Positions 1-19,734 of a DNA stretch of 64,000 bases are shown here, piece by piece. A program made the translations under genes and the position numbers. Source of the stretch: Escherichia coli (GTDB lineage: Bacteria; Pseudomonadota; Gammaproteobacteria; Enterobacterales; Enterobacteriaceae); NCBI RefSeq assembly GCF_051903065.1, contig NZ_CP178438.1; one strand, given 5' to 3'. Below the pieces are notes generated by a model that worked only from the letters and a program-made list of their open reading frames with translations, was not told the origin of the DNA and ran no database searches. Positions within the stretch are counted from its first letter, which is position 1. Every line of letters starts with the position of its first letter.

Positions 1-795
1 GTCAGCACGGTCGCCTTTGGCTTGCTGACTTATATGATTGTCGGCGGCACTCGCGCCAATATCATCATCGCATTCGCTATCTTCCTGTTTATTGGCATTA
101 TTCGCGGCTGGATTTCGTTGTGGATGCTGGCGGCGGCGGGCGTGCTGGGGATTGTTGGCATGTTCTGGCTGGCGCTAAAACGCTATGGAATGAATGTGAG
201 CGGCGATGAAGCGTTCTATACGTTTCTCTATCTCACTCGCGACACCTTCTCGCCGTGGGAGAATCTGGCGTTGCTGTTGCAGAACTACGACAACATCGAC
301 TTCCAGGGCCTGGCTCCAATTGTCCGCGATTTCTATGTCTTTATCCCTTCCTGGCTGTGGCCGGGTCGCCCGAGTATGGTGCTGAACTCAGCCAACTACT
401 TTACCTGGGAAGTGCTGAATAACCACTCCGGACTGGCGATCTCGCCTACGCTTATAGGCTCACTGGTGGTGATGGGCGGCGCGTTGTTCATCCCGCTCGG
501 GGCGATTGTGGTTGGACTGATCATCAAATGGTTCGACTGGCTGTATGAGCTGGGCAACCGCGAGACTAATCGCTATAAGGCTGCGATATTGCACAGTTTC
601 TGCTTTGGGGCGATCTTCAATATGATCGTGCTGGCACGTGAAGGGCTGGATTCGTTTGTCTCACGCGTAGTCTTTTTTATCGTGGTCTTCGGCGCATGTC
701 TGATGATCGCAAAACTGTTGTACTGGCTTTTTGAAAGCGCCGGACTCATTCATAAACGTACAAAATCATCGCTCCGGACGCAGGTTGAAGGATAA
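1..795 (+). CDS. wzyE: 3' portion of a polytopic membrane protein, probably ECA polymerase WzyE (5' end outside window)
   Basis: Frame is open from base 1 to the stop at 795 (first in-frame ATG at 22); very hydrophobic multi-TM product; sits directly upstream of wecG as in the enterobacterial common antigen cluster. Confidence 0.7.
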
Positions 796-797
796 CA

Positions 798-1538
798 ATG
801 AATAACAACACCACGGCACCGACCTATACGCTGCGTGGCTTACAGTTGATTGGTTGGCGTGATATGCAGCACGCCCTCGATTATCTGTTTGCTGACGGGC
901 AGCTTAAGCAGGGAACGCTGGTTGCCATTAATGCTGAAAAAATGCTGACCATTGAAGATAACGCCGAGGTCAGGGAGTTAATTAACGCTGCCGAATTTAA
1001 ATATGCGGATGGCATCAGCGTTGTACGTTCAGTACGTAAAAAGTACCCGCAGGCGCAGGTTTCCCGCGTTGCCGGTGCCGATCTCTGGGAAGAGCTGATG
1101 GCGCGCGCAGGCAAAGAAGGGACGCCGGTATTTCTTGTGGGCGGTAAACCTGAAGTGCTGGCGCAAACTGAAGCTAAACTGCGCAACCAATGGAATGTGA
1201 ATATCGTTGGCAGTCAGGATGGTTATTTTAAACCCGAGCAGCGTCAGGCGCTGTTTGAACGCATTCATGCCAACGGAGCGCAAATCGTCACCGTTGCGAT
1301 GGGATCGCCAAAGCAGGAGATCTTCATGCGCGACTGCCGTCTGGTGCATCCAGATGCGCTGTATATGGGCGTTGGCGGGACTTACGATGTTTTCACCGGT
1401 CACGTAAAACGCGCACCGAAAATCTGGCAAACGCTGGGACTGGAGTGGCTCTACCGCCTGCTTTCGCAGCCGAGCCGCATTAAGCGTCAGCTTCGTTTGC
1501 TGCGTTATTTACGCTGGCACTACACCGGCAACCTCTGA
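798..1538 (+). CDS. wecG: UDP-N-acetyl-D-mannosaminuronic acid transferase (ECA biosynthesis), 246 aa
   Basis: Complete ORF starting 3 bp after the upstream stop; length and sequence match WecG/RffM as I recall it; terminator hairpin follows. Confidence 0.85.
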
Positions 1539-1556
1539 TTTTCCTCTCTTTGTAAA

Positions 1557-1596
1557 GCGACGGAGTGGTCACTCCGTCGCCTGTCTGCTTTTTTAT
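1557..1596 (+). terminator. Rho-independent terminator after wecG
   Basis: Inverted repeat gcgacggagtg/cactccgtcgc followed by a T-run (ctgcttttttatt). Confidence 0.6.
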
Positions 1597-1728
1597 TACA
1601 CAAAGCATTCAAATTTTTAATGCTTTATTTGCCATTTCTCCTGAATTACGAAAACATTCGCAACACTCGATGTACCCATAACGATAACCGGTAACACCGG
1701 AAAGCATGCAAACACAACACGAGGATTT

Positions 1729-3114
1729 ATGGCAGATAACAAACCAGAGCTACAGCGTGGGCTGGAAGCTCGACATATCGAACTCATCGCCCTGGGGGGC
1801 ACCATTGGCGTCGGCCTGTTTATGGGGGCCGCCAGTACCCTGAAATGGGCCGGGCCATCCGTATTGTTGGCCTATATCATCGCCGGGCTGTTCGTCTTTT
1901 TCATCATGCGTTCAATGGGCGAAATGTTGTTCCTCGAACCGGTTACCGGTTCGTTCGCCGTTTATGCGCATCGTTATATGAGCCCGTTCTTTGGCTATCT
2001 CACCGCCTGGTCTTACTGGTTTATGTGGATGGCGGTGGGGATCTCTGAAATCACCGCCATTGGCGTTTATGTCCAGTTCTGGTTCCCGGAGATGGCGCAG
2101 TGGATACCCGCATTGATCGCAGTGGCGCTGGTGGCGTTGGCGAATCTGGCGGCGGTGCGGTTGTACGGCGAAATCGAGTTCTGGTTCGCGATGATCAAAG
2201 TCACCACGATTATCGTGATGATTGTCATTGGCCTGGGCGTGATTTTCTTTGGCTTTGGCAATGGCGGGCAGTCGATTGGTTTTAGCAATCTCACAGAGCA
2301 TGGCGGTTTCTTTGCGGGTGGCTGGAAAGGGTTCCTGACCGCGCTGTGTATTGTGGTGGCGTCCTACCAGGGCGTGGAGCTGATTGGCATTACTGCCGGT
2401 GAAGCGAAGAATCCGCAGGTGACGCTGCGCAGTGCCGTAGGCAAGGTGCTGTGGCGGATCCTGATTTTCTACGTAGGCGCGATTTTCGTTATCGTCACCA
2501 TCTTCCCGTGGAATGAAATAGGCAGCAACGGCAGCCCGTTCGTACTGACTTTTGCCAAAATCGGTATTACCGCAGCGGCGGGCATTATCAACTTTGTGGT
2601 GCTGACGGCTGCGCTCTCTGGCTGTAACAGCGGCATGTACAGTTGCGGACGTATGCTCTATGCACTGGCGAAAAACCGTCAGTTACCGGCGGCGATGGCG
2701 AAAGTTTCCCGTCACGGCGTACCAGTTGCGGGTGTGGCAGTATCTATTGCTATTCTGCTAATTGGCTCATGCCTGAACTACATCATTCCCAATCCGCAGC
2801 GTGTGTTTGTCTACGTCTACAGTGCCAGCGTGCTTCCGGGGATGGTGCCATGGTTTGTGATATTGATAAGCCAGCTGCGTTTTCGGCGTGCACATAAAGC
2901 GGCGATTGCCAGCCATCCGTTCCGCTCAATCCTGTTCCCGTGGGCCAACTACGTAACAATGGCATTCCTGATTTGCGTTTTGATCGGCATGTACTTTAAT
3001 GAAGATACGCGTATGTCGCTGTTTGTTGGCATCATCTTTATGCTGGCGGTGACGGCGATTTATAAAGTTTTTGGCCTTAATCGCCACGGGAAAGCGCATA
3101 AACTGGAGGAATAA
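1729..3114 (+). CDS. yifK: APC-family amino-acid permease, 461 aa
   Basis: Long ORF with about 12 predicted TM segments; matches YifK by length and position between wecG and the tRNA cluster. Confidence 0.85.
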
Positions 3115-3166
3115 GCAGCAAAACGCACAAACCGTAACCAAACGCGCAATTTATTTAAAAAGGGAC

Positions 3167-3195
3167 TAGACAGAGGGGGGGGAAGTCCGTATTAT
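3167..3195 (+). promoter_or_regulatory. Candidate sigma70 promoter of the argX-hisR-leuT-proM tRNA operon
   Basis: TAGACA (3167-3172), 17-bp spacer, TATTAT (3190-3195); A/T-rich tract upstream; tRNA-Arg begins about 22 bp downstream. Confidence 0.45.
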
Positions 3196-3216
3196 CCACC
3201 CCCGCAACGGCGCTAA

Positions 3217-3293
<77 letters not shown>

Positions 3294-3350
3294 TTTAGTC
3301 CCGGCGCTTGAGCTGCGGTGGTAGTAATACCGCGTAACAAGATTTGTAGT

Positions 3351-3427
3351 GGTGGCTATAGCTCAGTTGGTAGAGCCCTGGATTGTGATTCCAGTTGTCG
3401 TGGGTTCGAATCCCATTAGCCACCCCA
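3351..3427 (+). tRNA. hisR: tRNA-His (anticodon GUG), with the extra 5' G(-1)
   Basis: GGTGGCTATAGCTCAGTTGGTAGAGC...CCCATTAGCCACCCCA; anticodon loop region TTGTGAT. Confidence 0.95.
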
Positions 3428-3447
3428 TTATTAGAAGTTGTGACAAT

Positions 3448-3534
3448 GCGAAGGTGGCGGAATTGGTAGACGCGCTAGCTTCAGGTGTTAGTGTCCTTAC
3501 GGACGTGGGGGTTCAAGTCCCCCCCCTCGCACCA
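3448..3534 (+). tRNA. leuT: tRNA-Leu (anticodon CAG), long variable arm
   Basis: 87-nt class II tRNA GCGAAGGTGGCGGAATTGGTAGACGCG...CCCCCCCTCGCACCA. Confidence 0.95.
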
Positions 3535-3576
3535 CGACTTTAAAGAATTGAACTAAAAATTCAAAAAGCAGTATTT

Positions 3577-3653
3577 CGGCGAGTAGCGCAGCTTGGTAGC
3601 GCAACTGGTTTGGGACCAGTGGGTCGGAGGTTCGAATCCTCTCTCGCCGACCA
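3577..3653 (+). tRNA. proM: tRNA-Pro (anticodon UGG)
   Basis: CGGCGAGTAGCGCAGCTTGGTAGCGC...TCTCTCGCCGACCA; anticodon loop TTTGGGA. Confidence 0.95.
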
Positions 3654-3658
3654 ATTTT

Positions 3659-3686
3659 GAACCCCGCTTCGGCGGGGTTTTTTGTT
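3659..3686 (+). terminator. Rho-independent terminator of the tRNA operon
   Basis: aaccccgcttcggcggggtt hairpin followed by TTTTTTGTTTT. Confidence 0.8.
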
Positions 3687-3799
3687 TTCTGTGCATTTCG
3701 TCACTCTCCCTTCGCAATAAACGCCCGTAATAACTCATTGCCCCACGGTATGATTTCGCCCTTAACGTATTGAAGGATGACTTCAGGCAAGGAGCGACC

Positions 3800-5035
3800 A
3801 TGCTGCAACAGGTTCCAACGCGTGCTTTTCATGTGATGGCGAAACCGAGCGGTTCCGATTGTAATCTGAACTGTGACTACTGTTTTTATCTCGAAAAACA
3901 ATCCCTTTACCGCGAAAAGCCAGTCACGCATATGGACGATGACACGCTGGAAGCGTATGTCCGTCACTATATCACTGCCAGCGAACCGCAAAACGAAGTG
4001 GCTTTTACCTGGCAGGGCGGCGAACCAACGTTACTCGGGCTGGATTTTTACCGCCGTGCCGTAAAGTTACAGGCGAAATACGGTGCTGGCAGGAAGATAA
4101 GTAACAGCTTCCAGACTAACGGCGTGCTGCTCGATGATAAATGGTGTGCATTTCTGGCAGAAAATCATTTTCTTGTTGGGTTATCGCTGGACGGTCCGGC
4201 TGAGATCCACAATCAATATCGCGTGACCAAAGGTGGCAGACCAACGCATAAGCTGGTGATGCGTGCCCTGACGCTGCTGCAAAAACATCATGTCGACTAT
4301 AACGTGCTGGTCTGCGTCAACCGCACCAGCGCGCAGCAACCGTTGCAGGTTTATGATTTTTTGTGCGATGCGGGAGTCGAATTCATCCAGTTTATTCCGG
4401 TGGTCGAGCGTCTGGCTGATGAAACAGCTGCCCGCGATGGACTGAAATTGCATGCGCCTGGTGATATTCAGGGGGAACTGACGGAATGGTCGGTGCGCCC
4501 CGATGAATTTGGTGAATTTCTGGTGGCGATATTCGACCACTGGATTAAACGCGACGTCGGCAAGATTTTCGTGATGAATATCGAATGGGCGTTTGCCAAT
4601 TTTGTCGGTGCGCCGGGTGCGGTTTGCCATCATCAGCCAACCTGTGGGCGCTCGGTGATTGTTGAGCACAATGGCGACGTTTACGCCTGCGATCACTATG
4701 TTTATCCGCAATATCGACTGGGGAATATGCACCAGCAAACAATTGCAGAAATGATCGATTCCCCGCAACAGCAGGTGTTTGGTGAAGATAAATTTAAGCA
4801 ATTACCGGCGCAGTGTCGCAGTTGTAACGTGTTAAAAGCATGTTGGGGAGGCTGCCCGAAACACCGCTTCATGCTCGATGCCAGCGGCAAACCGGGACTG
4901 AATTATTTGTGTGCCGGGTATCAGCGTTATTTCCGCCATCTACCGCCATATCTTAAAGCAATGGCTGATTTGCTGGCGCACGGTCGCCCGGCCAGCGACA
5001 TTATGCATGCGCATTTGCTGGTGGTGAGTAAGTAA
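3800..5035 (+). CDS. aslB: Radical-SAM anaerobic sulfatase-maturating enzyme homologue, 411 aa
   Basis: CxxxCxxC radical-SAM motif (CNLNCDYC) near the N-terminus and C-terminal Cys clusters; start trimmed from the track ORF (3770) to the ATG giving MLQQVPTRAF; lies next to sulfatase aslA. Confidence 0.8.
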   Translation: MLQQVPTRAFHVMAKPSGSDCNLNCDYCFYLEKQSLYREKPVTHMDDDTLEAYVRHYITASEPQNEVAFTWQGGEPTLLGLDFYRRAVKLQAKYGAGRKISNSFQTNGVLLDDKWCAFLAENHFLVGLSLDGPAEIHNQYRVTKGGRPTHKLVMRALTLLQKHHVDYNVLVCVNRTSAQQPLQVYDFLCDAGVEFIQFIPVVERLADETAARDGLKLHAPGDIQGELTEWSVRPDEFGEFLVAIFDHWIKRDVGKIFVMNIEWAFANFVGAPGAVCHHQPTCGRSVIVEHNGDVYACDHYVYPQYRLGNMHQQTIAEMIDSPQQQVFGEDKFKQLPAQCRSCNVLKACWGGCPKHRFMLDASGKPGLNYLCAGYQRYFRHLPPYLKAMADLLAHGRPASDIMHAHLLVVSK

Positions 5036-5060
5036 AAAAGCGGCCATTTTGTGGCCGCCT

Positions 5061-5177
<117 letters not shown>

Positions 5178-5202
5178 GGCAGATCTCAGCGATAGCGCCG
5201 GC

Positions 5203-6858
5203 TTAATCAGATTTAATCTGCGCGCGTGGTGGATACTTTTTCAGGATCTCCATATACGCGTGCATTTCGGTCTGTAGCGGTACACCCATCGGAATATGGC
5301 GCACGCCGATAGAGTCGCTCTCCTGCGGATCGGTGTACAGGTTAAACACCGACGATCCGGCTGTTTGCATTACTGTGCCGGTGAATCCACCCTGATATCC
5401 GCTCTGGGTATAAGCGTAAGGTTGCTGAATCAGGACGTGATACTTGAATTCATCCATACGCACAGCAGCGAGTTTACCGTTGAGGAAGTAGTGCTCGGCC
5501 TTACGGTTAGACTGACCATTTGTTCCCAGGAAGAAAGATGTCTGGTCCACACCATCGATAAAGGTGGTTTTCGGCACTAAATTCGCCACTTTCGCGCCAG
5601 GATGCCCTGCCAGATCCAGCGCGGTAGGGAAGAGATCTGCCAGATCGACAATACCGTCAGATTTACGCGGTTGGATCATCCCTTTCCAGTACACGAAAGT
5701 CGGAACGCGAACGCCGCCTTCCCAGGTAGATCCTTTCGCACCACGGAACGGTGTGCGTCCGTGCGGCGGTACTTCGGCTTCCGGTCCGTTATCGGAGGTA
5801 AAGACAATCAGCGTGTTATCAAGCTGACCGTTTTTCTCTAGTGCTTTATACAGATTAGCGAACACATCGTTCATTTCCACCATGCAGTCGCCATACGAGG
5901 TGCGTGCCGGAGAGCTACCCGCATATTTGGCGTTCGGGTAGTTATCGAAGTGACAGCCGCGAGTGCCGTAATAGAGGAAGAAAGGCTTCTCACTCTTCGC
6001 CATCTTGTCGAGGAACTTAACGCCATATTCCATCCAGCGTTGATCCAGATCTTCCATATATTTCGGCGTAATGTCGGCAATGGCCTGTTGTTCGCCGCCG
6101 CGCACCGCATGAACGTCATCTTTGCTAAATGGTAATTGCTTGATGTATTCAGAACGGTCCGGACTCAGGGCCACTTCCGGATTGACGTGAACGTCGCGCC
6201 ATTCGGTGTACATATCAGACACCGAGTTAAAGCCACGGAAATCATCAAAGCCAACGTTCTGCGGCTGCGACTCTTTGTTTTCCCCCATATGCCATTTCCC
6301 GATGGCCTGAGTGACGTAGCCCTGATCGTGCAGCAACTGCGGCAGCGTGGTTAACCCTTGCAGCCCGCCCGGTTGCCCGTACATTGGCGGCATCAGAATG
6401 CCGTGGTGGATGGAGTATTGTCCGGTGAGAATGGTGGCGCGGGTTGGGGAAGAGCTTGGTTGAGAATACGCCGAAGTTAAAATCAGCCCCTGGCTGGCAA
6501 CGGCGTCGATATCTGGTGTAGGGTTACCCACCGCCACGCCGCCACCGTTAAAACCGACGTCCATCCAGCCCACATCGTCCAGCAAGAAAACAACCACATT
6601 CGGTTTCTTACCGGTTTTTTTCTCAAGTTCTGCCAGCTTCTGCTGGGTTTCTTTATCCTGCGCCGGATGCTGCATTACTGGCATCATGTTGTCGGCAATA
6701 GTGGTCGCCGGTTTAACCAGATACTGGTTTGGGTGATCGTATCCGGCAAAGCCTTTGCGTGCGGTGGCAGTTGAAGGGGTATCTGCTGCGCTGGCCATGA
6801 GAGGAAGAGCGGCGGCGACAGCAACAACAAGAAGTTTGGGTGAAAACGAAAATTCCAT
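5203..6858 (-). CDS. aslA: Arylsulfatase-like protein with signal peptide, 551 aa; Ser-type sulfatase signature
   Basis: N-terminal signal peptide ([15 protein letters not shown]); sulfatase signature S-x-P-x-R-xxx-L-T-G present as [11 protein letters not shown]. Confidence 0.85.
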
Positions 6859-7282
6859 GCAAAATGCTCCGGTTTCATGTCATCAAAATGATGACGTAAT
6901 TAAGCATTGATAATTGAGATCCCTCTCCCTGACAGGATGATTACATAAATAATAGTGACAAAAATAAATTATTTATTTATCCAGAAAATGAATTGGAAAA
7001 TCAGGAGAGCGTTTCCAATCCTACCTCTGGCGCAGTTGATATGTAAGGCAGGTTTATTATATCGCGTTGATTATTGATGCTGTTTTTAGTTTTAACGGCA
7101 ATTAATATATGCGTTATTAATTGAATGAATTTTATCATTCATAATAAGTATGTGTAGGATCAAGCTCAGGTTAAATATTCACTCAGGAAGTTATTACTCA
7201 GGAAGCCAAGAGGATTACAGAATTATCTCATAACAAGTGTTAAGGGATGTTATTTCCCGATTCTCTGTGGCATAATAAACGA

Positions 7283-7489
7283 GTAGATGCTCATTCCATC
7301 TCTTATGTTCGCCTTAGTGCCTCATAAACTCCGGAATGACGCAGAGCCGTTTACGGTGCTTATCGTCCACTGACAGATGTCGCTTATGCCTCATCAGACA
7401 CCATGGACACAACGTTGAGTGAAGCACCCACTTGTTGTCATACAGACCTGTTTTAACGCCTGCTCCGTAGTAAGAGCAGGCGTTTTTTT
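7283..7489 (+). ncRNA. glmZ: Small RNA GlmZ (activator of glmS translation), about 207 nt including its intrinsic terminator
   Basis: No ORF; sequence GTAGATGCTCATTCCATCTCTTATGTTCGCC... matches GlmZ as I recall it; located in the aslA-hemY spacer; ends in hairpin aacgcctgctc/gagcaggcgtt plus T7; CATAAT -10 hexamer at 7271-7276. Confidence 0.8.
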
Positions 7490-7536
7490 ATGTGTCAGGA
7501 AGGCCCCGGAGGTGCTTGCCTCCGGGTGAGAAGGAA

Positions 7537-8733
7537 CTACTGTGGTGGGTTGTTCTGCAACGTTAACATCAAACCGTCGCGACGCATCGCTGCAGCTTCT
7601 TCCGGCTTGTGCAGTCTGTCCAGCGCGTCGGCAAGCCATGCGTAATCGTAGGCGTCCGGACGTTGTTTCAGCGCTGCGCGGAAGGCGAGCGATGCTTCCT
7701 GCCATTCTCCGTGCTTCATCAGTGACTGGCCCAGTGTGCTCCACAACAGCGGGCGATCGCCGACGTTTTTGATTTGCTGGCGCAGCACTTTTTCAAGCTG
7801 TTCAGGGTTATTGGTTTTCAGACGCGGGATCGGCAGCAGTAGGCGATCGTCATACTGGCGTTTCAGGCCGTCGATGATAATTTGCTGGGCAGTATCATGA
7901 TCGTCACATTCAATAAGATGTTCCGCCATTGCCACCTGCAACGCTACCTGATGACGCGTTTTCCGGCTTTGGTTTTTCCACCAGTTACGCAAACCTTCGC
8001 TACCGTTATCGGCACGCGCCTGATCCATCAGGCCAATCCATGCCTGTTGTTCCAGCATTGCACGATGTTCTTCATCACCAACATGGGCTTTCGCCATTGA
8101 TGGGATAATATCCAGCAGCGAACTCCATGCACCTGTGCGGATATACGCCTGTTCCGCCAGACGTAATACTTCCGGATGGCGTGGCGTAACTTCCAGCAGC
8201 TTATCCACGCCGTGGCGTGCAGCATGGTTTTCATTACGGGCCAGTTGCAGACGTACACGGGTGATTTCTACCGGAATGGTGTCATTGCCGGCCAGCTCCG
8301 CTGCGCGTTCCAGATGTTGGTTGGCGCGCGCTTCATCACCACGTTGTTGCGCGGCTTCGGCAGCCAGTAGATAGTTCACCACCGGTTGTTCAGCGTGATC
8401 GGCATTTTTCGCCATCAGCTTTTCAACTTGCTGATAATCGCCTTCCGCCAGTTTCAGCAGCGCCTGTTCGGTCTGCTTACGTGCACGGCGACGCTTACGC
8501 CCGACAAACCACCCACGGGTGTGCGCGCCAGTGCGGAAGATCCGCCGCAGTAGCCACTCAATGGCAAACAGCACTACCATCGCCAGAATCAATATGATCG
8601 CCAGGCCCGTGACGCTGGTTTCGATATTGTAGTTGTCGGTCTGGATCAGCACATAACCCTGATGACCGGCAATCATCGGGCCAACCACGATCCCCGCAAT
8701 CAGCAACACAAAGAGCAATAACACTTTTAGCAT
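7537..8733 (-). CDS. hemY: HemY (TPR-like inner-membrane protein of the hem operon), 398 aa
   Basis: ORF with N-terminal TM segment; last gene of the hemCDXY arrangement. Confidence 0.85.
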   Translation of the reverse strand: MLKVLLLFVLLIAGIVVGPMIAGHQGYVLIQTDNYNIETSVTGLAIILILAMVVLFAIEWLLRRIFRTGAHTRGWFVGRKRRRARKQTEQALLKLAEGDYQQVEKLMAKNADHAEQPVVNYLLAAEAAQQRGDEARANQHLERAAELAGNDTIPVEITRVRLQLARNENHAARHGVDKLLEVTPRHPEVLRLAEQAYIRTGAWSSLLDIIPSMAKAHVGDEEHRAMLEQQAWIGLMDQARADNGSEGLRNWWKNQSRKTRHQVALQVAMAEHLIECDDHDTAQQIIIDGLKRQYDDRLLLPIPRLKTNNPEQLEKVLRQQIKNVGDRPLLWSTLGQSLMKHGEWQEASLAFRAALKQRPDAYDYAWLADALDRLHKPEEAAAMRRDGLMLTLQNNPPQ

Positions 8734-8735
8734 GG

Positions 8736-9965
8736 TTATTCTCCTTGCGGCGCGGCTGCCGGAGTATCAGCTTGCGGTGCAGGTGCAGGTGCAGGTGCAG
8801 GTGCAGGTGCAGGTGCAGGTGCAGGTGCAGGTGCAGGTTTAGCTTCCGTTGTCTCCGCTGCCGGTTGTGCCAGCAGGTTACGCACGCGAGTCTGCATCAG
8901 TTTTTCCAGCATCGCCTGGCTTTGCAGGGTTTCCGGAAGATCCATCGAGATATTTTGCTGGCTTAACTGGTCCACCTCGTCGAGGAACGCTTTGGTGGTG
9001 GCATCATCAGTATCGTAGTAAGCACGTACCCAGGTGGAGACGTTCTCCAGCGCCTGGCGATAAGTCTCTTCCTGATGACGCGGTACAGCTTGTGCTGCGA
9101 CCAGCAGGCGAGAGCGAATATTTTCGCGCAGATAGATATCCTGATTTGGCGCTAACAGCGGTACGGCGGTGTCATCACGACGGCGAATCGTAATGAAGTT
9201 GTCCATAAAGTTCTGCCAGCTTTTTTGCAGATTGATACGCCATTCGCTGATGGAACTGGAAAGCTCTTCACCGTCGGAATCCATCGGCGAACCATCGCTG
9301 TCATTATCGGCCAGACGCAGGTTATCTACCTGATTTGAAAGCTGATTAAGCTTAAGGATGATGCCGTCATAATCCACCTGCGATACTGCAGAAAGGCTGG
9401 CGATATCATCGGTAATTGCCCGACGAACGGTAATCAAACTCGGGTCATTCATATCCGCCAGGCTGGCGTCTGCACTTTTCAGCAACGCTGCAGCGGTCGT
9501 GACGTCCTGATCGCTCCACAGCTTCCGTCCGGCGAGTTTCACCAGAAAATCGGCCTGAGCCAGCAGCCAGGTTTTAGCATCGCTGCCGGAAATGGTGGCG
9601 ACCTTTTGTTGGACTTCATCCAACTGTTTTGCCAGCGTTTCTTGCTGACGATTCGCCTGCTTAAGTTGTGCAGCTTGTTGCTTAATAATGCCTTCCAGCT
9701 CGGCTTTTTGGCTCTCCTGGGCTTTTTGCAATGCCGTCAGTTGGTTAGCCAGGGCATCGCTGGTGGCGGTCTGATTGACGGCCTGTTGTTTACCCCAGCC
9801 ATACAAACCGACGCCTGCCGCCAGAGCAATAGCGATAGCCACCGCACTGAGAATCAATGCGGTATTGTTCTTACTCTTTTTTTCTGTTGCGACAGGTTGT
9901 GACGTGGTGTCCACGGCCTCCCTGGTCTCTTCAACCACGGCGGAGGTTTTTTCTTGTTCCGTCAT
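8736..9965 (-). CDS. hemX: HemX (membrane-anchored protein with coiled-coil region and a C-terminal Pro-Ala repeat), 409 aa as called
   Basis: ORF 2 bp upstream of hemY; single TM; Gln/Ala-rich coiled-coil region; C-terminal (PA)n tract; product length may vary with repeat number. Confidence 0.8.
8776..8838. repeat. Perfect hexanucleotide tandem repeat (GGTGCA/TGCACC), about 10.5 units, encoding the (Pro-Ala)n tract of HemX
   Basis: ggtgcaggtgcaggtgca... read directly from the sequence. Confidence 0.95.
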
Positions 9966-9986
9966 TATGGCTTCCTGTTATGAGAG

Positions 9987-10727
9987 TTATTGTAATGCCC
10001 GTAAAAGCGCATCGTTGTCAGCGTTATCGGCGACCTTAATGTCTTGCCAGCCCAGTTCCCGGGCGAGTTTCGCCAAACGCTCACTGACGACCAATAGTCG
10101 ACAGTGTAGTAACCAGTGCTCACGATACCATTGTGGGATCAGCGACCAGAGTTGCTGCAACATTTCACCGCTGGTAACAACGACCGTCGTCACCTCGCGG
10201 GATTGCCAGCGCATCGCTTCTTCTGCACCATCGTAATGGATTGCGCATCGTTGATAACATTCACAAAAAGTGACCTCAGCACCGCGCGCCGTCAGGGTAT
10301 CCCCAATTAGCTCACGACCGCCATTGCCACGTAATATCAGCGCACGTTTGCCCGCAATATTTTGTAATTCAGGTAATTGTAGCAAGACTTCGCTGATTTC
10401 CCGATCCTGTGGGTAGAGAATCTTCTGTCCGCTTACGGTATGTAGCGCCAGTGCGGTGGTGCGTCCAATGGCGAAATAAGTAGGTAGTCGGGGCCATTTA
10501 CGATCTTGCTGATGCAGCTGTGATTGGGCAAAAGCAACCGCGTGTTGCGAGAGGGCAAACAACAGATCGCTCTCCCCCAGCGCTGCCAGTTGATCAGCAA
10601 GTTGCGGTAATTGTCGACCCGGAGAAAACTCAATCAGCGGAAAATGCCAGGCCACCTGCCCCAGTGTGCGCAGACGGCTCACTAACTCTTCTCCAGCGGG
10701 AGACGGGCGGGTGACAAGGATACTCAT
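9987..10727 (-). CDS. hemD: Uroporphyrinogen-III synthase, 246 aa
   Basis: ORF length and position between hemC and hemX; start overlaps the hemC stop by 4 bp. Confidence 0.85.
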
Positions 10728-11665
10728 GCCGGGGCGTCTCCGTTATAGACTTCAGCGAGGATCTCGCGCGCGCCGTTATTCAGTAGCTCTTCTGCCAGCG
10801 AAATCCCCATTTGTTCGGCATCTTGCGGCGCACCGCGGCGTTCACCGCGAATAATCTGCGAACCGTCCGGCGCGCCGACCAGCGCACGCAGCCAGATTTC
10901 GCCATCAATAAGCTCGGCGTAGCTACCAATTGGCACCTGACATCCGCCTTCGAGACGGGTATTCATGGCGCGTTCTGCGGTAACGCGCAGTGCAGTTTCG
11001 TGGTGATTCAGCGCGGCAAGCAGCTCGCGAGTGCGTGAATCATCAAGGCGGCATTCAATACCGACTGCACCTTGTCCTACCGCCGGAAGAGAAATCTCGG
11101 GTGGCAACGCGGCGCGAATGCGGGACTCCAGACCTAAACGTTTTAGTCCGGCTACGGCAAGAATGATGGCATCGTATTCGCCGTTATCCAGTTTGCTCAG
11201 GCGAGTGCCGACGTTGCCGCGCAGGGAGCGGATAATCAGATCCGGGCGGCGTTCAGCCAGTTGGCACTGGCGACGTAAACTGGACGTCCCGACGATACTG
11301 CCTGCCGGTAACGCATCCAGACTGTCATAGTTATTGGACACAAAGGCATCGCGAGGATCTTCACGCTCACAAATAGTGACCAGTCCCAGACCTTGCGGGA
11401 ATTCAACCGGCACATCTTTCATTGAGTGTACGGCGATATCGGCGCGATTTTCGAGGAGCGCGACTTCCAGCTCTTTTACAAATAAGCCTTTTCCGCCTAC
11501 TTTCGCCAGCGGCGTATCAAGAATCACATCGCCGCGCGTCACCATCGGTACCAGTTCAACGACCAGGCCCGGATGGCTCGCCATCAACTTGTCTTTGACA
11601 TAGTGTGCCTGCCAGAGTGCAAGTGGGCTTTGGCGTGTGGCAATTCTTAAAACATTGTCTAACAT
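10724..11665 (-). CDS. hemC: Porphobilinogen deaminase (hydroxymethylbilane synthase), 313 aa
   Basis: Start trimmed to the ATG giving [19 protein letters not shown]...; the track ORF extends 7 codons further to 11686, an alternative start. Confidence 0.85.
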
Positions 11666-12051
11666 GCTTGTTACCGTCATTATCATCCGTGGTCCATCCT
11701 AACATCCTTGCCAGAGTGATGTCAGTGTTGTGGTGAAACGTAGACGCCTGCGCAAACCGTAAAATGAGGTCTGGCAGTGGATCCTGACAGGCGTTTCACG
11801 CCGTCGTAATAAGGAATTTACAGAGAATAAACGGTGCTACACTTGTATGTAGCGCATCTTTCTTTACGGTCAATCAGCAAGGTGTTAAATTGATCACGTT
11901 TTAGACCATTTTTTCGTCGTGAAACTAAAAAAACCAGGCGCGAAAAGTGGTAACGGTTACCTTTGACATACGAAATATCCCGAATGCCGCGTGTTACCGT
12001 TGATGTTGGCGGAATCACAGTCATGACGGGTAGCAAATCAGGCGATACGTC

Positions 12052-14598
12052 TTGTACCTCTATATTGAGACTCTGAAACAGAGACTGGATGCCATAAATC
12101 AATTGCGTGTGGATCGCGCGCTTGCTGCTATGGGGCCTGCATTCCAACAGGTCTACAGTCTACTGCCGACATTGTTGCACTATCACCATCCGCTAATGCC
12201 GGGTTACCTTGATGGTAACGTTCCCAAAGGCATTTGCCTTTACACGCCTGATGAAACTCAACGCCACTACCTGAACGAGCTTGAACTGTATCGTGGAATG
12301 TCAGTACAGGACCCGCCGAAAGGTGAGCTTCCAATTACTGGTGTATACACCATGGGCAGCACTTCGTCCGTAGGGCAAAGTTGTTCCTCTGACCTGGATA
12401 TCTGGGTCTGTCATCAATCCTGGCTCGATAGCGAAGAGCGCCAGTTGCTACAACGTAAATGTAGCCTGCTGGAAAGCTGGGCCGCCTCGCTGGGTGTGGA
12501 AGTCAGCTTCTTCCTGATTGATGAAAACCGCTTCCGTCATAATGAAAGTGGCAGTCTGGGGGGCGAAGATTGTGGCTCCACCCAGCATATACTGTTGCTT
12601 GACGAATTTTATCGTACCGCCGTGCGTCTCGCCGGTAAGCGTATTCTGTGGAATATGGTGCCGTGCGACGAAGAAGAGCATTACGACGACTATGTGATGA
12701 CGCTTTACGCGCAGGGCGTGCTGACGCCAAATGAATGGCTGGATCTCGGTGGCTTAAGCTCGCTTTCTGCTGAAGAGTACTTTGGTGCCAGCCTTTGGCA
12801 GCTCTACAAGAGTATCGATTCCCCATACAAAGCGGTACTGAAAACACTGCTGCTGGAAGCCTATTCCTGGGAATACCCGAACCCACGTCTGCTGGCGAAA
12901 GATATCAAACAGCGTTTGCACGACGGCGAGATTGTATCGTTTGGCCTCGATCCGTACTGCATGATGCTGGAGCGAGTTACTGAATACCTGACGGCGATTG
13001 AAGATTTCACCCGTCTGGATTTAGTACGTCGCTGCTTCTATTTAAAAGTGTGCGAAAAGCTCAGCCGTGAACGCGCCTGTGTAGGCTGGCGTCGCGCAGT
13101 GTTGAGCCAGTTAGTGAGCGAGTGGGGTTGGGACGAAGCTCGTCTGGCAATGCTCGATAACCGCGCTAACTGGAAGATTGATCAGGTGCGTGAGGCGCAC
13201 AACGAGTTGCTCGACGCGATGATGCAGAGCTACCGTAATCTGATCCGCTTTGCGCGTCGCAATAACCTTAGCGTCTCCGCCAGTCCGCAGGATATCGGCG
13301 TGCTGACGCGTAAGCTGTATGCCGCGTTTGAAGCATTACCAGGTAAAGTGACGCTGGTAAACCCGCAGATTTCACCCGATCTCTCGGAACCGAATCTGAC
13401 CTTTATTTATGTGCCGCCGGGCCGAGCTAACCGTTCAGGTTGGTATCTGTATAACCGCGCGCCAAATATTGAGTCGATCATCAGCCATCAGCCGCTGGAA
13501 TATAACCGTTACCTGAATAAACTGGTGGCGTGGGCATGGTTTAACGGCCTGCTGACCTCGCGCACCCGCTTGTATATTAAAGGTAACGGCATTGTCGATT
13601 TGCCTAAGTTGCAGGAGATGGTCGCCGACGTGTCGCACCATTTCCCGCTGCGCTTACCTGCACCGACACCGAAGGCGCTCTACAGCCCGTGTGAGATCCG
13701 CCATCTGGCGATTATCGTTAACCTGGAATATGACCCGACAGCTGCGTTCCGCAATCAGGTGGTGCATTTCGATTTCCGTAAGCTGGATGTCTTCAGCTTT
13801 GGCGAGAATCAAAATTGCCTGGTAGGTAGCGTTGACCTGCTGTATCGCAACTCGTGGAATGAAGTGCGTACGCTGCACTTCAACGGCGAGCAATCGATGA
13901 TCGAAGCCCTGAAAACTATTCTCGGCAAAATGCATCAGGACGCCGCACCGCCAGATAGCGTGGAAGTCTTCTGTTATAGCCAGCATCTGCGCGGCTTAAT
14001 TCGTACTCGCGTGCAGCAACTGGTTTCTGAGTGTATTGAATTGCGTCTTTCCAGCACCCGCCAGGAAACCGGGCGTTTCAAGGCGCTGCGCGTTTCTGGT
14101 CAAACCTGGGGCTTGTTCTTCGAACGCCTGAATGTATCGGTACAGAAACTGGAGAACGCCATCGAGTTTTATGGCGCTATTTCGCATAACAAACTGCACG
14201 GCCTGTCAGTGCAGGTTGAAACCAATCACGTCAAATTACCGGCGGTGGTGGACGGCTTTGCCAGCGAAGGGATCATCCAATTCTTCTTCGAAGAAACGCA
14301 AGACGAGAATGGCTTTAATATCTACATTCTCGACGAAAGCAACCGGGTTGAGGTGTATCACCACTGCGAAGGCAGCAAAGAGGAGCTGGTACGTGACGTC
14401 AGTCGCTTCTACTCGTCATCGCATGACCGTTTTACCTACGGCTCAAGCTTCATCAACTTCAACCTGCCGCAGTTCTATCAGATTGTGAAGGTTGATGGTC
14501 GTGAACAGGTGATTCCGTTCCGCACAAAATCTATCGGTAACATGCCGCCTGCCAATCAGGATCACGATACGCCGCTATTACAGCAGTATTTTTCGTGA
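12052..14598 (+). CDS. cyaA: Adenylate cyclase, 848 aa, TTG start codon
   Basis: Codon at 12052-12054 is TTG; product begins [18 protein letters not shown]...; divergent from hemC. Confidence 0.9.
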
Positions 14599-14637
14599 TG
14601 AACGTGCCGGAAAGCGAGGCTTATCCGGCATGCAATC

Positions 14638-14958
14638 TTAGCGGAAACTGACTGTTTCACCCGCCTGCTGCGTCGCCGCCTGTTCCAGCAAATCCCAGAA
14701 GGTTTCGCCGCTGCGATCGCAAATCCACTCATCGCCTTTCAGATCAAAATGGTAGCCGCCTTGTTTGGTTGCCAGCCATACCTGGTGCAGCGGTTCCTGG
14801 CGGTTGATAATGATTTTGCTGCCATTCTCAAAGGTAATGGTCAGCACGCCGCCGTTGATTTCGCAGTCGATATCGCTGTCGCCATCCCAGTCGTCCAGGC
14901 GTTCTTCAATGGTCAGCCAGAGTTGATCAGCCAGGCGATGAAATTCACTGTCGTTCAT
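14638..14958 (-). CDS. cyaY: Frataxin-like iron-binding protein CyaY, 106 aa
   Basis: 106-aa acidic protein convergent with cyaA. Confidence 0.9.
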
Positions 14959-15040
14959 TGTTGTATCCTGTTTTTAAGTGATGGCGGCAGTATAAGTTGT
15001 TTCGTCTAACAGTGAAATCAACATGGTTCGGCTATAAAAC

Positions 15041-15466
15041 TTAACCTACATACCTCGTCCCATTCCAACGCAAGATTGTATCCTCGTCGCATAAAAGGTT
15101 GTGTACGCCATGATTCTTTTCTTTCATCAGGCTGATTTTGCTACAAAAATAATCAATGTTAATTTTGGAGTTATCCGGGGTCATAATACTGCAAGCCATA
15201 GTTGGTGCGTCACTCGCGGTATATCCACAATCGTCTTTCCCGCAGGCAGCGGGAGGCGTGGAGGGTGAATACGTGCAGTTAAGCGTTTCGGAAATGCCAT
15301 CATCGTTAATGTCGAGGGGACGGCTAATCTCATCGCTGTCAGTGCCTAATGTGGTTGCATCCAGGATGACGTTTGGTTTTTGTATCTCGCTTGTGGCCGC
15401 GTAATTGAAGCTGCTTGCGGCCATTATGCCTAGAGCTATGCCAATCCGTAAGGCTATTTTTTGCAT
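15041..15466 (-). CDS. Small secreted cysteine-rich hypothetical protein, 141 aa (island gene A)
   Basis: ATG with GAGGA RBS upstream; N-terminal signal peptide (ALGIMAASSFNYAA); six Cys in the mature part; start overlaps the stop of gene B; AT-rich. Confidence 0.6.
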   Translation of the reverse strand: MQKIALRIGIALGIMAASSFNYAATSEIQKPNVILDATTLGTDSDEISRPLDINDDGISETLNCTYSPSTPPAACGKDDCGYTASDAPTMACSIMTPDNSKINIDYFCSKISLMKEKNHGVHNLLCDEDTILRWNGTRYVG

Positions 15467-16749
15467 CCTGGTTCCTCTGTAATAATCATAATGTCTCTGT
15501 TTTGAACTTCACGCACATTCTCTTCTCTGACACGAGTTTTCGCCGGACAGGGGGATGGCGTAATCCTGACCTCTGTATCGGTCCAGGTATAAACATTGCG
15601 ATCGTCATAAGCGAAGCGATCGTTTTTAATTAGCGGGCCGTTAGTTGGAATAATTTGCACGCTCTTTGACCGTAATTGGCGGATAAAGTAAACATGTTGT
15701 TTGCCGCCATTAAATGAGTTATCAATGACCAGGTCTGGCGAATCCAGCGGAATTATTTCAAGCTGGTCTTCACCAAAAGTCGATAATTTTGTTACATACA
15801 GACGATCTTTATACTGCGCAATATTGCCAGTAATCAGATGAAATTGTTCAGGTTCAATATCCGGTAGGTCTATCCACTTGCTCCACTGACGGTCGGGCGA
15901 GAGCTGTTTACGCCAGCGAACGCGACTTTCCCCCACTTCAAAAGAGACGTCATCATCTACGGGTATCGCTTTGCCAGATAATTGCCCAAAGGGATAACGA
16001 TGCAGACCATTGTTGTCGCGAAAAACCAGCAGTGAATGAGGTATCCAGCGAATTATCTCAAATGAGTCTGCATTCGCCGTAAGGTGAACGCCATTTAAAT
16101 AAATATTCTGCCCACTGCGGATAAGCAGATCATTGGAATACAAATTTCTGTTTACACTCATAAGACGTGGATTAATACCCCACCATCTTTTTTCTAATAC
16201 AGTAACATTACTGCTGCTCCCCTGACGTCGACCGGACAAATAGAGATTTTTACTATCCACCAGCGTGGTAGAGTTACCTTCGATAGCTTTTAGTGTCGCC
16301 AGATCAACACGTGACGCGCCGCTATTACTTTCGGTGCGCTGTCCATCAAAATAGAGGCTATATTTATCGACCGCGAAGCGGCCCATAGCCTGAAAGCTGG
16401 CAATATCGACAGTGGGTATTCCCGGTGGATTGCTAACGATTTTGCCACGCCAGAGAATAACGCGGCCGTCTGTCACCCAGTGGTATTCCTCATTTTTTAT
16501 GCTTATTTCATCGGTGGGTATATAGCCTTCCACTAACTCCCGCTCCCCGGATATATTTGTCACAAGGCGCAAATCGGCTCTGTTCATCTTCGGAAATTGG
16601 GCAATGATTTTCTCATCCTCCCCATAACCTTTACCGTAAGACATGACACCGTGATCATTGTAATAGTCGAACCCTATGGCCTGTACAGCAGGTGTCAGAA
16701 ATGTGTGCCCCAACAGGATGAGTGCAACTGTGATTATTTGACCATTCAT
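15454..16749 (-). CDS. Secreted repeat protein, DKNYY-like family, 431 aa (island gene B)
   Basis: Signal peptide; repeated motifs DKYSLYFDG, SKNLYLSG, GQNIYLNG, ANADSFEII; paralogous to the upstream 502-aa gene; ATGA overlap with that gene's stop. Confidence 0.8.
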   Translation of the reverse strand: MNGQIITVALILLGHTFLTPAVQAIGFDYYNDHGVMSYGKGYGEDEKIIAQFPKMNRADLRLVTNISGERELVEGYIPTDEISIKNEEYHWVTDGRVILWRGKIVSNPPGIPTVDIASFQAMGRFAVDKYSLYFDGQRTESNSGASRVDLATLKAIEGNSTTLVDSKNLYLSGRRQGSSSNVTVLEKRWWGINPRLMSVNRNLYSNDLLIRSGQNIYLNGVHLTANADSFEIIRWIPHSLLVFRDNNGLHRYPFGQLSGKAIPVDDDVSFEVGESRVRWRKQLSPDRQWSKWIDLPDIEPEQFHLITGNIAQYKDRLYVTKLSTFGEDQLEIIPLDSPDLVIDNSFNGGKQHVYFIRQLRSKSVQIIPTNGPLIKNDRFAYDDRNVYTWTDTEVRITPSPCPAKTRVREENVREVQNRDIMIITEEPGCKK

Positions 16750-18254
16750 TTTGTCGCCTCATTGCGCGGGGCAGGAATAAATTCGCCGTCATCGGTAATT
16801 TTTCCGTCCAGATATCCCGTTTTGTAATTTACCCCGTAGCCATATCCCGAATGTTGTTCCTTCCAGATTAAGCGAACTTGTTTCGGATCAGCGGTGCGGT
16901 ATCGCCAGAGCTGCGCGCCATCAAAGCTGTAAACGTAGCGGTTATCGCGGGCATACCATCTGCGCAAAAAGGGATGGTCATTAAGATGGGCTTCGCGTTC
17001 ATCCGGAGAACGGTTATCCAGTAAGATCAGCGGTCCGTCAGATTCAAACACGTGTAAACCGGAATGGTATGGCCACCCTTCGGCACGCGTAAGTAAATAG
17101 CCGTGGCGTTTCCCGGCGTTGAAACGTTTGTTGATAATAAGATTGGGATCATCAAGTTTCACGATCTCCAGCTTGCGGTCACCAGACTCTGTTTCGATGA
17201 TGGTATAAAGCGAGTCCTGATACTGTGCGACAGCATCACTGATGGGGTGAAACTGTTCCGGATCGAGTCCGGGTAATTCTTCCTGTTTACAGTCAGGCCC
17301 CTGACGCCAGAACACTTTCTTTTCCAGCAGAGAAAAATCCAGACAGTGCTTTGTTAAATCTTCATCCCACGCCAGATTTTCCTTGTCGAGGACTTTACGC
17401 TGCAGCCCGTTTTTATCACGCCAGGTCAAGAGTGAGCCGGGCATCCAGCGCACGACGGAAAAAGTGTCCGGGTCGGCATCAAGCTGTTCGCCGTTGATCA
17501 GGATTTTGGTTCTTGTACGAGCCAGGGTATCCCAGGGGCCAAATGGCATAGCCACACAGGGATTAAACGCGGTAGAAAACTTTCCTCTTTGATCCCATGA
17601 CTTTTGTGCCAGCACACGGAAACTCTCGGGGTCAGCGAGGCGATGCCCATCGACATATAAGAAATTAGCGTCACGTAATATCAGCCCCAGTAAGTCAGGA
17701 TCCCAGGGAGGCCGGAATTCCACCTGATGCAGTGTTTTGATATCTACGCTATTTCCCCCGCCATTGTCATCGGTGCGCTTGCCTTCGAAATAGAGACTGT
17801 GTTTATCTGCGGCAAAATCACCCCATGCCTTGAACGAGGCGACATCGACGGGAGGTTTGTCTGGCGGGTTTTGCACAACTTCACCCGCGTAGAGGATATT
17901 GCGGCCATCGCTATGCCAGGAGTAATGAGGATACCAGGCTTGTGCGCCTTCATAGAGGTAGTCGGTTGTTAGATCAGTCAGAGGTGGTTCTTTATTCCAT
18001 TCATCTTGTGTTGTTGGGTCTATTAATAAATTGGGTAAACGGCGCAAACTCTTGTAATTCACGTCAGGTAGAGAAAGATTTGTTTCTTTATAAGGGCGCA
18101 GGTACACCACGCCTTTTCCCTGTTTCTGGTAAATATTATGTTCAGGTGCATCAAGCCGACATCCCCATGCCGACGATAAGAACAATGAACAAGCCAACAA
18201 ACAAACCACATTGCGATAGTGCATAAAGCCATCCTGGCGCGAGGTGTTGATCAC
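16746..18254 (-). CDS. Secreted repeat protein, DKNYY-like family, 502 aa as called (island gene C)
   Basis: GTG at 18254, or ATG at 18224 giving MHYRNVVCLLACSLFLSSAWG... signal peptide; motifs DKHSLYFEG, DANFLYVDG, ADPESFRVL, ADPDTFSVV; similar to gene B (e.g. NPPDKPPVDVASFKAWGDFAADKHSLYFEGKRT vs NPPGIPTVDIASFQAMGRFAVDKYSLYFDGQRT). Confidence 0.8.
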   Translation of the reverse strand: MINTSRQDGFMHYRNVVCLLACSLFLSSAWGCRLDAPEHNIYQKQGKGVVYLRPYKETNLSLPDVNYKSLRRLPNLLIDPTTQDEWNKEPPLTDLTTDYLYEGAQAWYPHYSWHSDGRNILYAGEVVQNPPDKPPVDVASFKAWGDFAADKHSLYFEGKRTDDNGGGNSVDIKTLHQVEFRPPWDPDLLGLILRDANFLYVDGHRLADPESFRVLAQKSWDQRGKFSTAFNPCVAMPFGPWDTLARTRTKILINGEQLDADPDTFSVVRWMPGSLLTWRDKNGLQRKVLDKENLAWDEDLTKHCLDFSLLEKKVFWRQGPDCKQEELPGLDPEQFHPISDAVAQYQDSLYTIIETESGDRKLEIVKLDDPNLIINKRFNAGKRHGYLLTRAEGWPYHSGLHVFESDGPLILLDNRSPDEREAHLNDHPFLRRWYARDNRYVYSFDGAQLWRYRTADPKQVRLIWKEQHSGYGYGVNYKTGYLDGKITDDGEFIPAPRNEATK

Positions 18255-18333
18255 GATACTGCCAGCAGAACATAAATCCTCACACGTAAGCGTAATTCTC
18301 GCGGCAAATCGTCACTTTTCAGAATCCATAAAG
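18163..18333. repeat. Copy 1 of a 171-bp direct repeat (promoter/leader/signal-peptide module), covering the 5' end of gene C
   Basis: About 93% identical to 19245-19415 at a constant offset of 1082 bp (ccccatgccgacgataa...cacttttcaga). Confidence 0.9.
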
Positions 18334-18590
18334 GTCATTGCTATTTTCTGATAGTTGCTGGGGTAAACGTGATGTTTTCATTCACGATATAAATACGAGG
18401 TACTGCGCCATGGTGTGACTGATCACGTTAAAATGTGCCGGGTTGACGCCGGGAAGGGGTTCAACATGCGACTCTGCCCCCGTTGCCTACTTTATTGTCT
18501 TTCGCGAGTTGTACCCATGTTCCACCACTGGTATCTAACATTCTCCACATTATTACGCTTTCTGCCGAATGTGATTTTTATAGAAATCTA

Positions 18591-19145
18591 TCAATTCATT
18601 TTCCCTGTGCCATAAATTTTATCCTTCACATCCTGCCGAACGCGGGTCTTGTACCCCCCGTTGTGAAGATCTTCATACGGAGAAAAAGAATCTTTACTCC
18701 ACCCCAGCAGCACTTTATCGCCAGGCATAAAATGCACATGCAGAAAATCTTCTCCCCATTCTCTTTTGGGGAGAGGTAACGTCATATTCCGTTTCTCCAG
18801 ACGCATTCCAGCATTATACTGTGTACGAGTAGTACTTAATGTCCAGATAACCTCTGCAGTATCCCCACTGACATCACCACAACAGGTTGTTGAACCTCCA
18901 CCATTTGCAAAAGCATTCGCGCCCGCCACGCCGTTAACACTGAATCCCAGTATCGGACGGTCAATTTCACTGTGGATTTCCAGAATCACTCCACCTCTTG
19001 GACCTCCCCATACTGCCTGCCCTATATTCCACAACACGACCAGTACTGGAACGACAATTAACGTCCGCCATACCCAGCGCCCCCAGCGGGCATAACCGCG
19101 CGTAAGCTTTTGGTCAAATTTTTCCAGTTGGGTAAATAGCCCCAT
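18591..19145 (-). CDS. DUF3304-like membrane-anchored protein, 184 aa (island gene D)
   Basis: ATG with AGGGA RBS upstream; N-terminal TM segment (WRTLIVVPVLVVLWNIG); motifs GFSVNGVAGANAFANGGGSTTCCGD and LHVHFMPGDKVLLGW resemble DUF3304 proteins as I recall them. Confidence 0.6.
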   Translation of the reverse strand: MGLFTQLEKFDQKLTRGYARWGRWVWRTLIVVPVLVVLWNIGQAVWGGPRGGVILEIHSEIDRPILGFSVNGVAGANAFANGGGSTTCCGDVSGDTAEVIWTLSTTRTQYNAGMRLEKRNMTLPLPKREWGEDFLHVHFMPGDKVLLGWSKDSFSPYEDLHNGGYKTRVRQDVKDKIYGTGKMN

Positions 19146-19244
19146 CAGATTTTATTCCCTCTTATCACCAGGTTGGCAAAGTTGTATGTCACTAGCGACT
19201 AAGGTCAGACAACGAAATTGCATGGTGCGCCACTCTATTAAAAG

Positions 19245-19415
19245 CCCCATGCCGACGATAAAAACAACGAACAAGCCAACAAACAAACCACATTGCGATA
19301 GTGCATAAAGCCATCCTGGCGCGAGGTGTTGATCACGAAACTGCCAGCAGAACATAAATCCTCACGAGTAAGCGTTATACTCGCAGCATTTCCTCACTTT
19401 TCAGACTTCATAAAG
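19245..19415. repeat. Copy 2 of the 171-bp direct repeat, upstream of gene D; holds a 32-codon stub of the gene C signal peptide
   Basis: Minus-strand reading from GTG at 19336 gives VINTSRQDGFMHYRNVVCLLACSLFLSSAWGF then a stop at 19238-19240. Confidence 0.9.
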
Positions 19416-19494
19416 AGTCGCTAAACGCTTGCTTTTACGCCTTCTCCTGCGATGATAGAAAGCAGAAAGCGATGAACTTTACAGGCAATCCATA

Positions 19495-19698
19495 ATGAAA
19501 AACGTGTTTAAGGCACTCACTGTATTACTTACTCTCTTCAGCCTGACGGGCTGCGGTCTGAAAGGTCCGCTCTATTTCCCGCCTGCAGATAAAAATGCAC
19601 CGCCGCCGACCAAACCGGTAGAGACGCAAACGCAATCCACGGTGCCGGATAAAAACGATCGCGCCACTGGCGATGGTCCATCCCAGGTGAATTACTAA
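19495..19698 (+). CDS. yifL: Small lipoprotein YifL, 67 aa
   Basis: Lipobox LTGC after a short signal peptide; Pro-rich; directly upstream of dapF. Confidence 0.85.
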   Translation: MKNVFKALTVLLTLFSLTGCGLKGPLYFPPADKNAPPPTKPVETQTQSTVPDKNDRATGDGPSQVNY

Positions 19699-19734
19699 AA
19701 GTCAGTTTCTGTACCCGCGTGATTGGAGTAAATG

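Follow-up and report, generated by a model that had tools for sequence, protein, structure and literature searches.

The 3′ end of hemX in the 64-kb stretch of Escherichia coli DNA analysed here (the window) carries a perfect tandem repeat. This raises the question of how the number of repeat units changes and whether such a change matters to HemX or to hemY, the gene immediately downstream. The features needed first are the following.

8736..9965, minus strand: hemX coding sequence, 409 aa plus stop (open reading frame, Pfam and RefSeq annotation of a near-identical relative)
7537..8733, minus strand: hemY coding sequence, starting 2 nt past the hemX stop (open reading frame, Pfam HemY_N and TPR, annotation)
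8776..8838, minus strand: perfect hexanucleotide array, GGTGCA x10.5 on the plus strand and (CCT GCA)10 on the hemX coding strand (Tandem Repeats Finder, sequence and codons)
8778..8837, minus strand: codons for (Pro-Ala)10, HemX residues 377-396 (translation and codon list)

A perfect hexanucleotide array within hemX

Tandem Repeats Finder reported the array at 8776-8838 with a period of 6, 10.5 copies, 100% matches, 0 indels and the unit GGTGCA, in agreement with the raw sequence. No other multi-copy perfect tandem array was present in the 64 kb, and all window matches to a three-unit GGTGCA probe fell within this one, with 0 expected from 100 dinucleotide-preserving shuffles. The two remaining rows of the program were both imperfect and of about two copies, namely 7176-7205 (15 nt x1.9), a tandem duplication within the aslA-hemY intergenic region, and 41094-41132 (19 nt x2.0).

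Read in frame, the array is AAA (CCT GCA)x10 CCG CAA, or K-(PA)10-P-Q, after which 11 more residues precede the stop codon. The program, the sequence and the codons therefore all agree with an earlier note on this DNA, which had described a perfect in-frame GGTGCA microsatellite near the 3′ end of hemX. Its figure of roughly 11 Pro-Ala dipeptides was slightly high, as the codon list gives 10 full dipeptides and one Pro. Codon usage within the array was uniform, with CCT as the only Pro codon and GCA as the only Ala codon. This points to a recent expansion of the array at the DNA level rather than to selection for the peptide accompanied by synonymous drift.

The open reading frame at 8736-9965 is hemX in the RefSeq annotation of every relative examined. 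Its product matched the Pfam HemX family (PF04375) over residues 130-363 with E=4.1e-108 and 360.9 bits (cutoff 25.9), and the Pro-Ala tract falls outside the matched residues. From the open reading frames and a relative's annotation, the operon has the gene order hemC-hemD-hemX-hemY, and the hemY ATG lies 42 nt downstream of the end of the array. The hemC and hemD genes overlap by 4 nt. The mechanically called hemC open reading frame (10724-11686, 320 aa) starts 15 nt upstream of the RefSeq start in the near-identical relative, where the coding sequence is 942 nt long (313 aa).

Elsewhere in the window, the annotation of the near-identical relative places a tRNA cluster (Arg-His-Leu-Pro) at 3217-3653 in the thrP-aslB interval, and that of the nearest relative places three hypothetical genes and a DUF3304 gene at ~15047-19151 in the cyaY-lptM interval. 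Features of other strains in the same 20 kb (window 1-20000) include a 'DKNYY family protein', and at least 80% of these 20 kb was matched in one place by 1032 of 5425 genomes. The comparison suggests that the cyaY-lptM segment (~15047-19151) is a variable region.

Copy number changes in whole units across E. coli

Positions 8600-9000 of the window were compared by megablast with 5,426 complete E. coli genomes, and the interval was found in 5,425 of them. Sixty records, evenly spaced along the ranking, were then listed. For 59 of the 60, the matched span (353-443 nt) was either equal to the 401 nt in the window or off by a multiple of 6 nt; the sole exception, P276M (NZ_CP044293.1), is taken up below. 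The full-unit counts in these 59 (genomes in brackets) were 2 (11), 4 (2), 5 (8), 6 (10), 7 (6) and 8 (8), with longer alleles of 9 (5), 10 (5), 11 (2), 13 (1) and 17 (1) units. Most of the 2-unit class were laboratory derivatives of K-12 (DH5a and C600, for example), which inflate this class so that it is over-represented in the sample. Alleles of 0, 1 or 3 units were absent from the 59 sampled genomes, and this could point to a minimum number of units.

Twelve alleles of 2-17 units were retrieved. All consisted of GGTGCA without interruption and had matching flanks, so the differences in length map wholly to the array. The hemX gene was kept intact in all retrieved alleles. Over the 8600-9000 interval, the K-12 derivatives DH5a and C600 were 48 nt shorter than the window; DH5a has two full units and a hemX coding sequence of 1182 nt, or 393 aa. 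HemX of the window thus exceeds K-12 HemX by 16 aa, which is exactly 8 units and agrees with the earlier remark that the greater length of the called protein would fit a difference in repeat number. Many RefSeq HemX protein accessions also appear to differ mainly in the Pro-Ala tract.

Copy number differed even between close relatives. The nearest complete genome, 23CRST027, was identical to window positions 1-20000 except for a single SNP (at 5839) and an additional GGTGCA, and another relative at 99.9% identity had 8 units. The comparison of hemX copy number across E. coli genomes that the earlier note had proposed thus returned 2-17 units in the 59 sampled genomes, clearly not the identical number in all strains that would speak against a variable repeat. 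The further claim that the array can expand or contract without a frameshift is in line with the length differences, which were multiples of 6 in all 59.

The hemX array is the CVN014 typing locus

Generic E. coli MLVA uses 6-bp loci, and the published primers for one such locus, CVN014, were mapped onto the window to test for identity with the array.

8691..8714, plus strand: CVN014 forward primer site, within hemY codons (exact match; PMC8143711 Table 1)
8842..8861, minus strand: CVN014 reverse primer site, within hemX (1 mismatch; PMC8143711)

The primers, F TCCCCGCAATCAGCAAMACAAAGA and R GCAGCRGGGACAACGGAAGC (PMC8143711 Table 1), each matched the window once, with 0 matches expected by chance. 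The predicted amplicon of 171 bp translates, by the published formula for the CVN014 allele, (size-111)/6 (PMC8143711), into allele 10, which is the number of full units. The formula with its 111-bp offset also gave whole-number alleles in 12 other E. coli sequences bearing the forward-primer site.

CVN014 is part of the generic E. coli MLVA schemes GECM-7 (Lindstedt et al. 2007) and GECM-10 (Lobersli et al. 2012), and is described in the typing literature as the most variable GECM locus. In the same literature, ST131 alone has alleles 2-11, Swedish ESBL isolates have 2-12 repeats with the widest variation among all loci, and the published CVN014 data do include alleles 1 and 3. The allele range derived here from genomes (2-17) agrees with the published range obtained by PCR. 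The hemX GGTGCA array is the CVN014 locus: the flanking primers, the 6-bp unit, the 111-bp offset and the high polymorphism were all found at this site, and with respect to primers, unit, offset and allele range the two are the same, without any difference between them.

It follows that copy-number comparison and PCR sizing at this site are routine and were done years ago. The sizing across isolates that the earlier note had called for is already published for CVN014 and showed a variable locus. Copy-number variation at the hemX array is therefore already known and has been used for typing since 2007. What is added here, by primer mapping, is the placement of CVN014 in hemX, where it encodes a (Pro-Ala)n run in the terminal tail of the protein. 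In the excerpts of open-access MLVA literature examined, the gene that harbours CVN014 was not named. A full-text literature search for hemX together with 'tandem repeat' or 'VNTR' returned nothing relevant, and the mention of hemX in a Salmonella MLVA paper concerned an unrelated SNP only.

The Pro-Ala tract belongs to a terminal low-complexity tail

Where the repeat lies in the protein was addressed by domain search, alignment and structure prediction, which together delimit one further feature.

8739..8867, minus strand: C-terminal low-complexity Pro/Ala-rich tail of HemX, residues 367-409 (80-species comparison, alignment and AF2)

In HemX, a Lys-rich segment precedes a hydrophobic stretch (residues 35-54), and an AF2 model predicted a long helix at 54-128 and a last helix ending at residue 366. 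For residues 367-409 the pLDDT was <50 and secondary structure was absent. Built on 35 close orthologues, the model had low overall confidence (mean pLDDT 57, pTM 0.36) and therefore supports disorder of the tail weakly. In an alignment of 35 enterobacterial HemX orthologues, conservation was high through Q367/P368, and beyond this point only P402 and Q407-G408-E409 were invariant. The Pfam scan found no domain past residue 363, and only 13 residues follow the Pro-Ala tract. As both conservation and the domain end before the tract, and few residues come after it, the tract is a portion of the terminal low-complexity tail. The proposal in the earlier note that it links the membrane/coiled-coil part to a C-terminal segment is thus not sustained. 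An interdomain Pro/Ala linker was rejected since there is no second domain, nor any structure predicted past residue 366 in the low-confidence model.

The tail was also compared in 80 Enterobacteriaceae species, each represented by one genome. A common 12-residue segment was followed by a stretch of 20-45 residues with abundant Ala, Pro, Glu and Thr, whose sequence and length varied among species, and nearly all of the proteins ended in QGE, mostly PQGE. All Enterobacteriaceae examined retained a Pro/Ala-rich HemX tail of about 20-45 residues, and thus the tail as such may matter.

HemX is a membrane-anchored, poorly understood protein. The Pfam scan detected the HemX domain only, with no methyltransferase family at E<=0.01. 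The RefSeq/PGAP product name is uroporphyrinogen-III C-methyltransferase, and Pfam calls the family 'putative'. This name looks like a legacy annotation, and we take it to be one. HemX has been described as a distant homologue of Mic60 that does not have the mitofilin domain (bioRxiv 10.1101/2022.06.14.496148, 2022 preprint), and apart from this remark no literature establishing a function for HemX was found.

The conserved HemX end overlaps the hemY ribosome-binding site

The invariant residues at the very end of HemX coincide with a nucleotide signal for the next gene.

8741..8746, minus strand: hemY Shine-Dalgarno AAGGAG, within the last hemX codons (sequence and 80-species conservation)

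The last hemX codons, CAA GGA GAA TAA, contain AAGGAG at 7 nt upstream of the hemY ATG, and HemX Q-G-E is encoded at window positions 8739-8747 by CAAGGAGAA, which includes this Shine-Dalgarno sequence. Across the 80 species, CAAGGAG hardly varied, even at the synonymous third positions of the CAA and GGA codons, whereas the third position of the next codon (GAA/GAG), just outside the Shine-Dalgarno core, varied freely. Because the synonymous sites are conserved within the Shine-Dalgarno and the next third position is variable, the conservation of QGE may act at the nucleotide level. From this pattern of sequence conservation, the invariant QGE may reflect a constraint on the hemY ribosome-binding site, with which a protein-level role would be compatible. 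The coincidence of the invariant QGE with the hemY ribosome-binding site is the second point added here.

The same array has expanded outside E. coli

In the 80-species comparison, expansion of the CCTGCA array was seen in E. albertii (36 nt), in Escherichia sp. E1V33 (42 nt) and MOD1-EC7003 (12 nt), in Citrobacter sp. NCU1 (60 nt), Awk 4 (84 nt) and R56 (78 nt), and in Raoultella ornithinolytica (24 nt). In most other genera the Pro/Ala-rich tail is encoded by mixed codons, without an array. In the three Citrobacter, HemX is 413-419 aa long and the arrays are perfect, with up to ~16 Pro-Ala pairs, and thus the same microsatellite has expanded outside Escherichia. A short APAP proto-repeat in the tail apparently seeded the expansion more than once. 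Expansion in several genera is the expected product of mutation pressure on a tolerant tail, and its occurrence in enterobacterial genera other than Escherichia is a modest new observation.

Probable slippage in a tolerant tail, and the alternatives

The array, the VNTR CVN014 in the 3′ end of hemX, very probably changes by slippage of 6-nt units within a tolerant, disordered tail. We infer that slipped-strand mispairing at replication adds or removes complete 6-nt units of (CCT GCA)n. Every unit has the palindrome TGCA, which lets both strands of the array fold back, and the array DNA was predicted to self-fold through TGCA·TGCA pairing at -13.9 kcal/mol (z -2.6 versus shuffles) and -11.3 kcal/mol (z -5.6). 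Such folding of the palindrome could stabilise the slipped intermediates. Each change in copy number would merely lengthen or shorten the (Pro-Ala)n run in the unstructured HemX tail. As the unit is two codons long, every change is in frame, with neither frameshift nor phase variation, and the array is therefore not an on/off switch. A phase-variable contingency locus was accordingly rejected, given the two-codon unit, the 59 of 59 length differences that were multiples of 6, and the intact hemX. If tail length is nearly neutral, such that the tail tolerates almost any length, then copy number would drift fast and be homoplasic between lineages, and fast drift of this kind makes for a high-resolution typing marker. 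With copy number as a drifting VNTR, differences in HemX length between strains should not be read as functional divergence, and the significance of the array beyond its existing use in strain typing is little.

A different reading is that the length of the tail is itself functional, with (Pro-Ala)n as a rigid, extended spacer that tunes the reach or the partners of the C-terminus, and with the variation as an adaptive knob. The Pro/Ala-rich tail was present in 80/80 Enterobacteriaceae species, P402 and the terminal QGE are invariant, and the CCTGCA array was expanded in the Escherichia species examined, three Citrobacter (60-84 nt) and Raoultella ornithinolytica (24 nt). However, neither Pfam nor AF2 gave a folded element beyond the tract for a spacer to position, and the invariance of QGE is paralleled by that of the hemY Shine-Dalgarno at the nucleotide level, synonymous sites included. 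Copy number differs between near-identical genomes, K-12 is able to grow with two units, the uniformity of the codons suggests mutation pressure, and in the typing literature ST131 alone covers alleles 2-11, a drift-like spread. A functional spacer is thus very unlikely. The broader proposal, that tail length is non-neutral and tunes either the activity or partner reach of HemX or a coupled translation of hemY, we consider very unlikely; if it were true, the recurrent expansion of CCTGCA would be the mark of selection favouring an evolvable 'tuning knob' within an envelope or heme-biogenesis operon.

The effect could instead be exerted on the RNA, with the length of the array setting translational coupling or mRNA structure and hence the HemX:HemY ratio. 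A distance of 42 nt separates the end of the array from the hemY ATG downstream, the repeat RNA folds into an imperfect hairpin of its own, and the hemY Shine-Dalgarno lies inside the last hemX codons, so that translation of hemY is probably coupled to termination of hemX. In the predicted fold, however, the repeat pairs only with itself, and the hemY Shine-Dalgarno and start pair with downstream hemY sequence. The 201-nt fold comprising the hemX 3′ end and the hemY start was ordinary (z -1.75), and the distance from the array to the hemY Shine-Dalgarno and start was identical in all alleles. Sequestration of the hemY Shine-Dalgarno by the repeat RNA was rejected on the self-pairing and this z value. 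Alternating Pro-Ala is not known as a strong ribosome-stalling motif. With a self-pairing repeat, an ordinary fold and a fixed spacing to hemY, neither RNA fold prediction nor the spacing across alleles gave a sign of the array regulating hemY, and an RNA-level role is highly improbable.

In P276M, the sole sampled genome with a span that was not off by a multiple of 6, the flanks were diverged and the array (726-812 of the retrieved sequence) read (GGTGCA)4 GGT (GGTGCA)2 GCA (GGTGCA)8, encoding ...PAAPAPPAPA.... The two 3-nt insertions that interrupt it may be real indels or assembly errors, and an assembly error is conceivable because the annotation of this genome gives hemY a frameshift and an internal stop. 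That the copy number in the window is likewise an assembly or sequencing artefact and not that of the genome is extremely improbable: long-read assemblers can mis-size microsatellites, and the P276M array is an example that would fit, but the interval was matched in 5425/5426 complete genomes, the alleles of the 59 sampled genomes form an integer-unit series, and PCR fragment sizing by independent laboratories gave the same range.

Comparison with known systems

Drift of whole units in a tolerant tail, the reading preferred here, can be set beside other Pro/Ala-rich segments and other hypermutable repeats. Pro/Ala-rich segments are known from the OmpA hinge (APAPAPAP), the linkers of the AceF lipoyl domains and the Pro-rich region of TonB. 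Their alternating Pro/Ala composition is like that of the HemX tract, and all are expected to be extended and unstructured, but these segments join two folded domains whereas in HemX just 13 residues and no domain come after the tract. Another in-frame coding VNTR used for typing enterobacteria is STTR5 of S. Typhimurium, a 6-bp repeat in the gene yohM. Both repeats are in frame, change rapidly within clones and are used in MLVA, and they differ in gene and species. Contingency loci of Haemophilus, Neisseria and Campylobacter also consist of simple hypermutable repeats that alter by slippage. In contingency loci, however, the units shift the frame or lie in promoters and give on/off switching, whereas the hemX array has a unit of two codons and the reading frame is kept in every allele seen.
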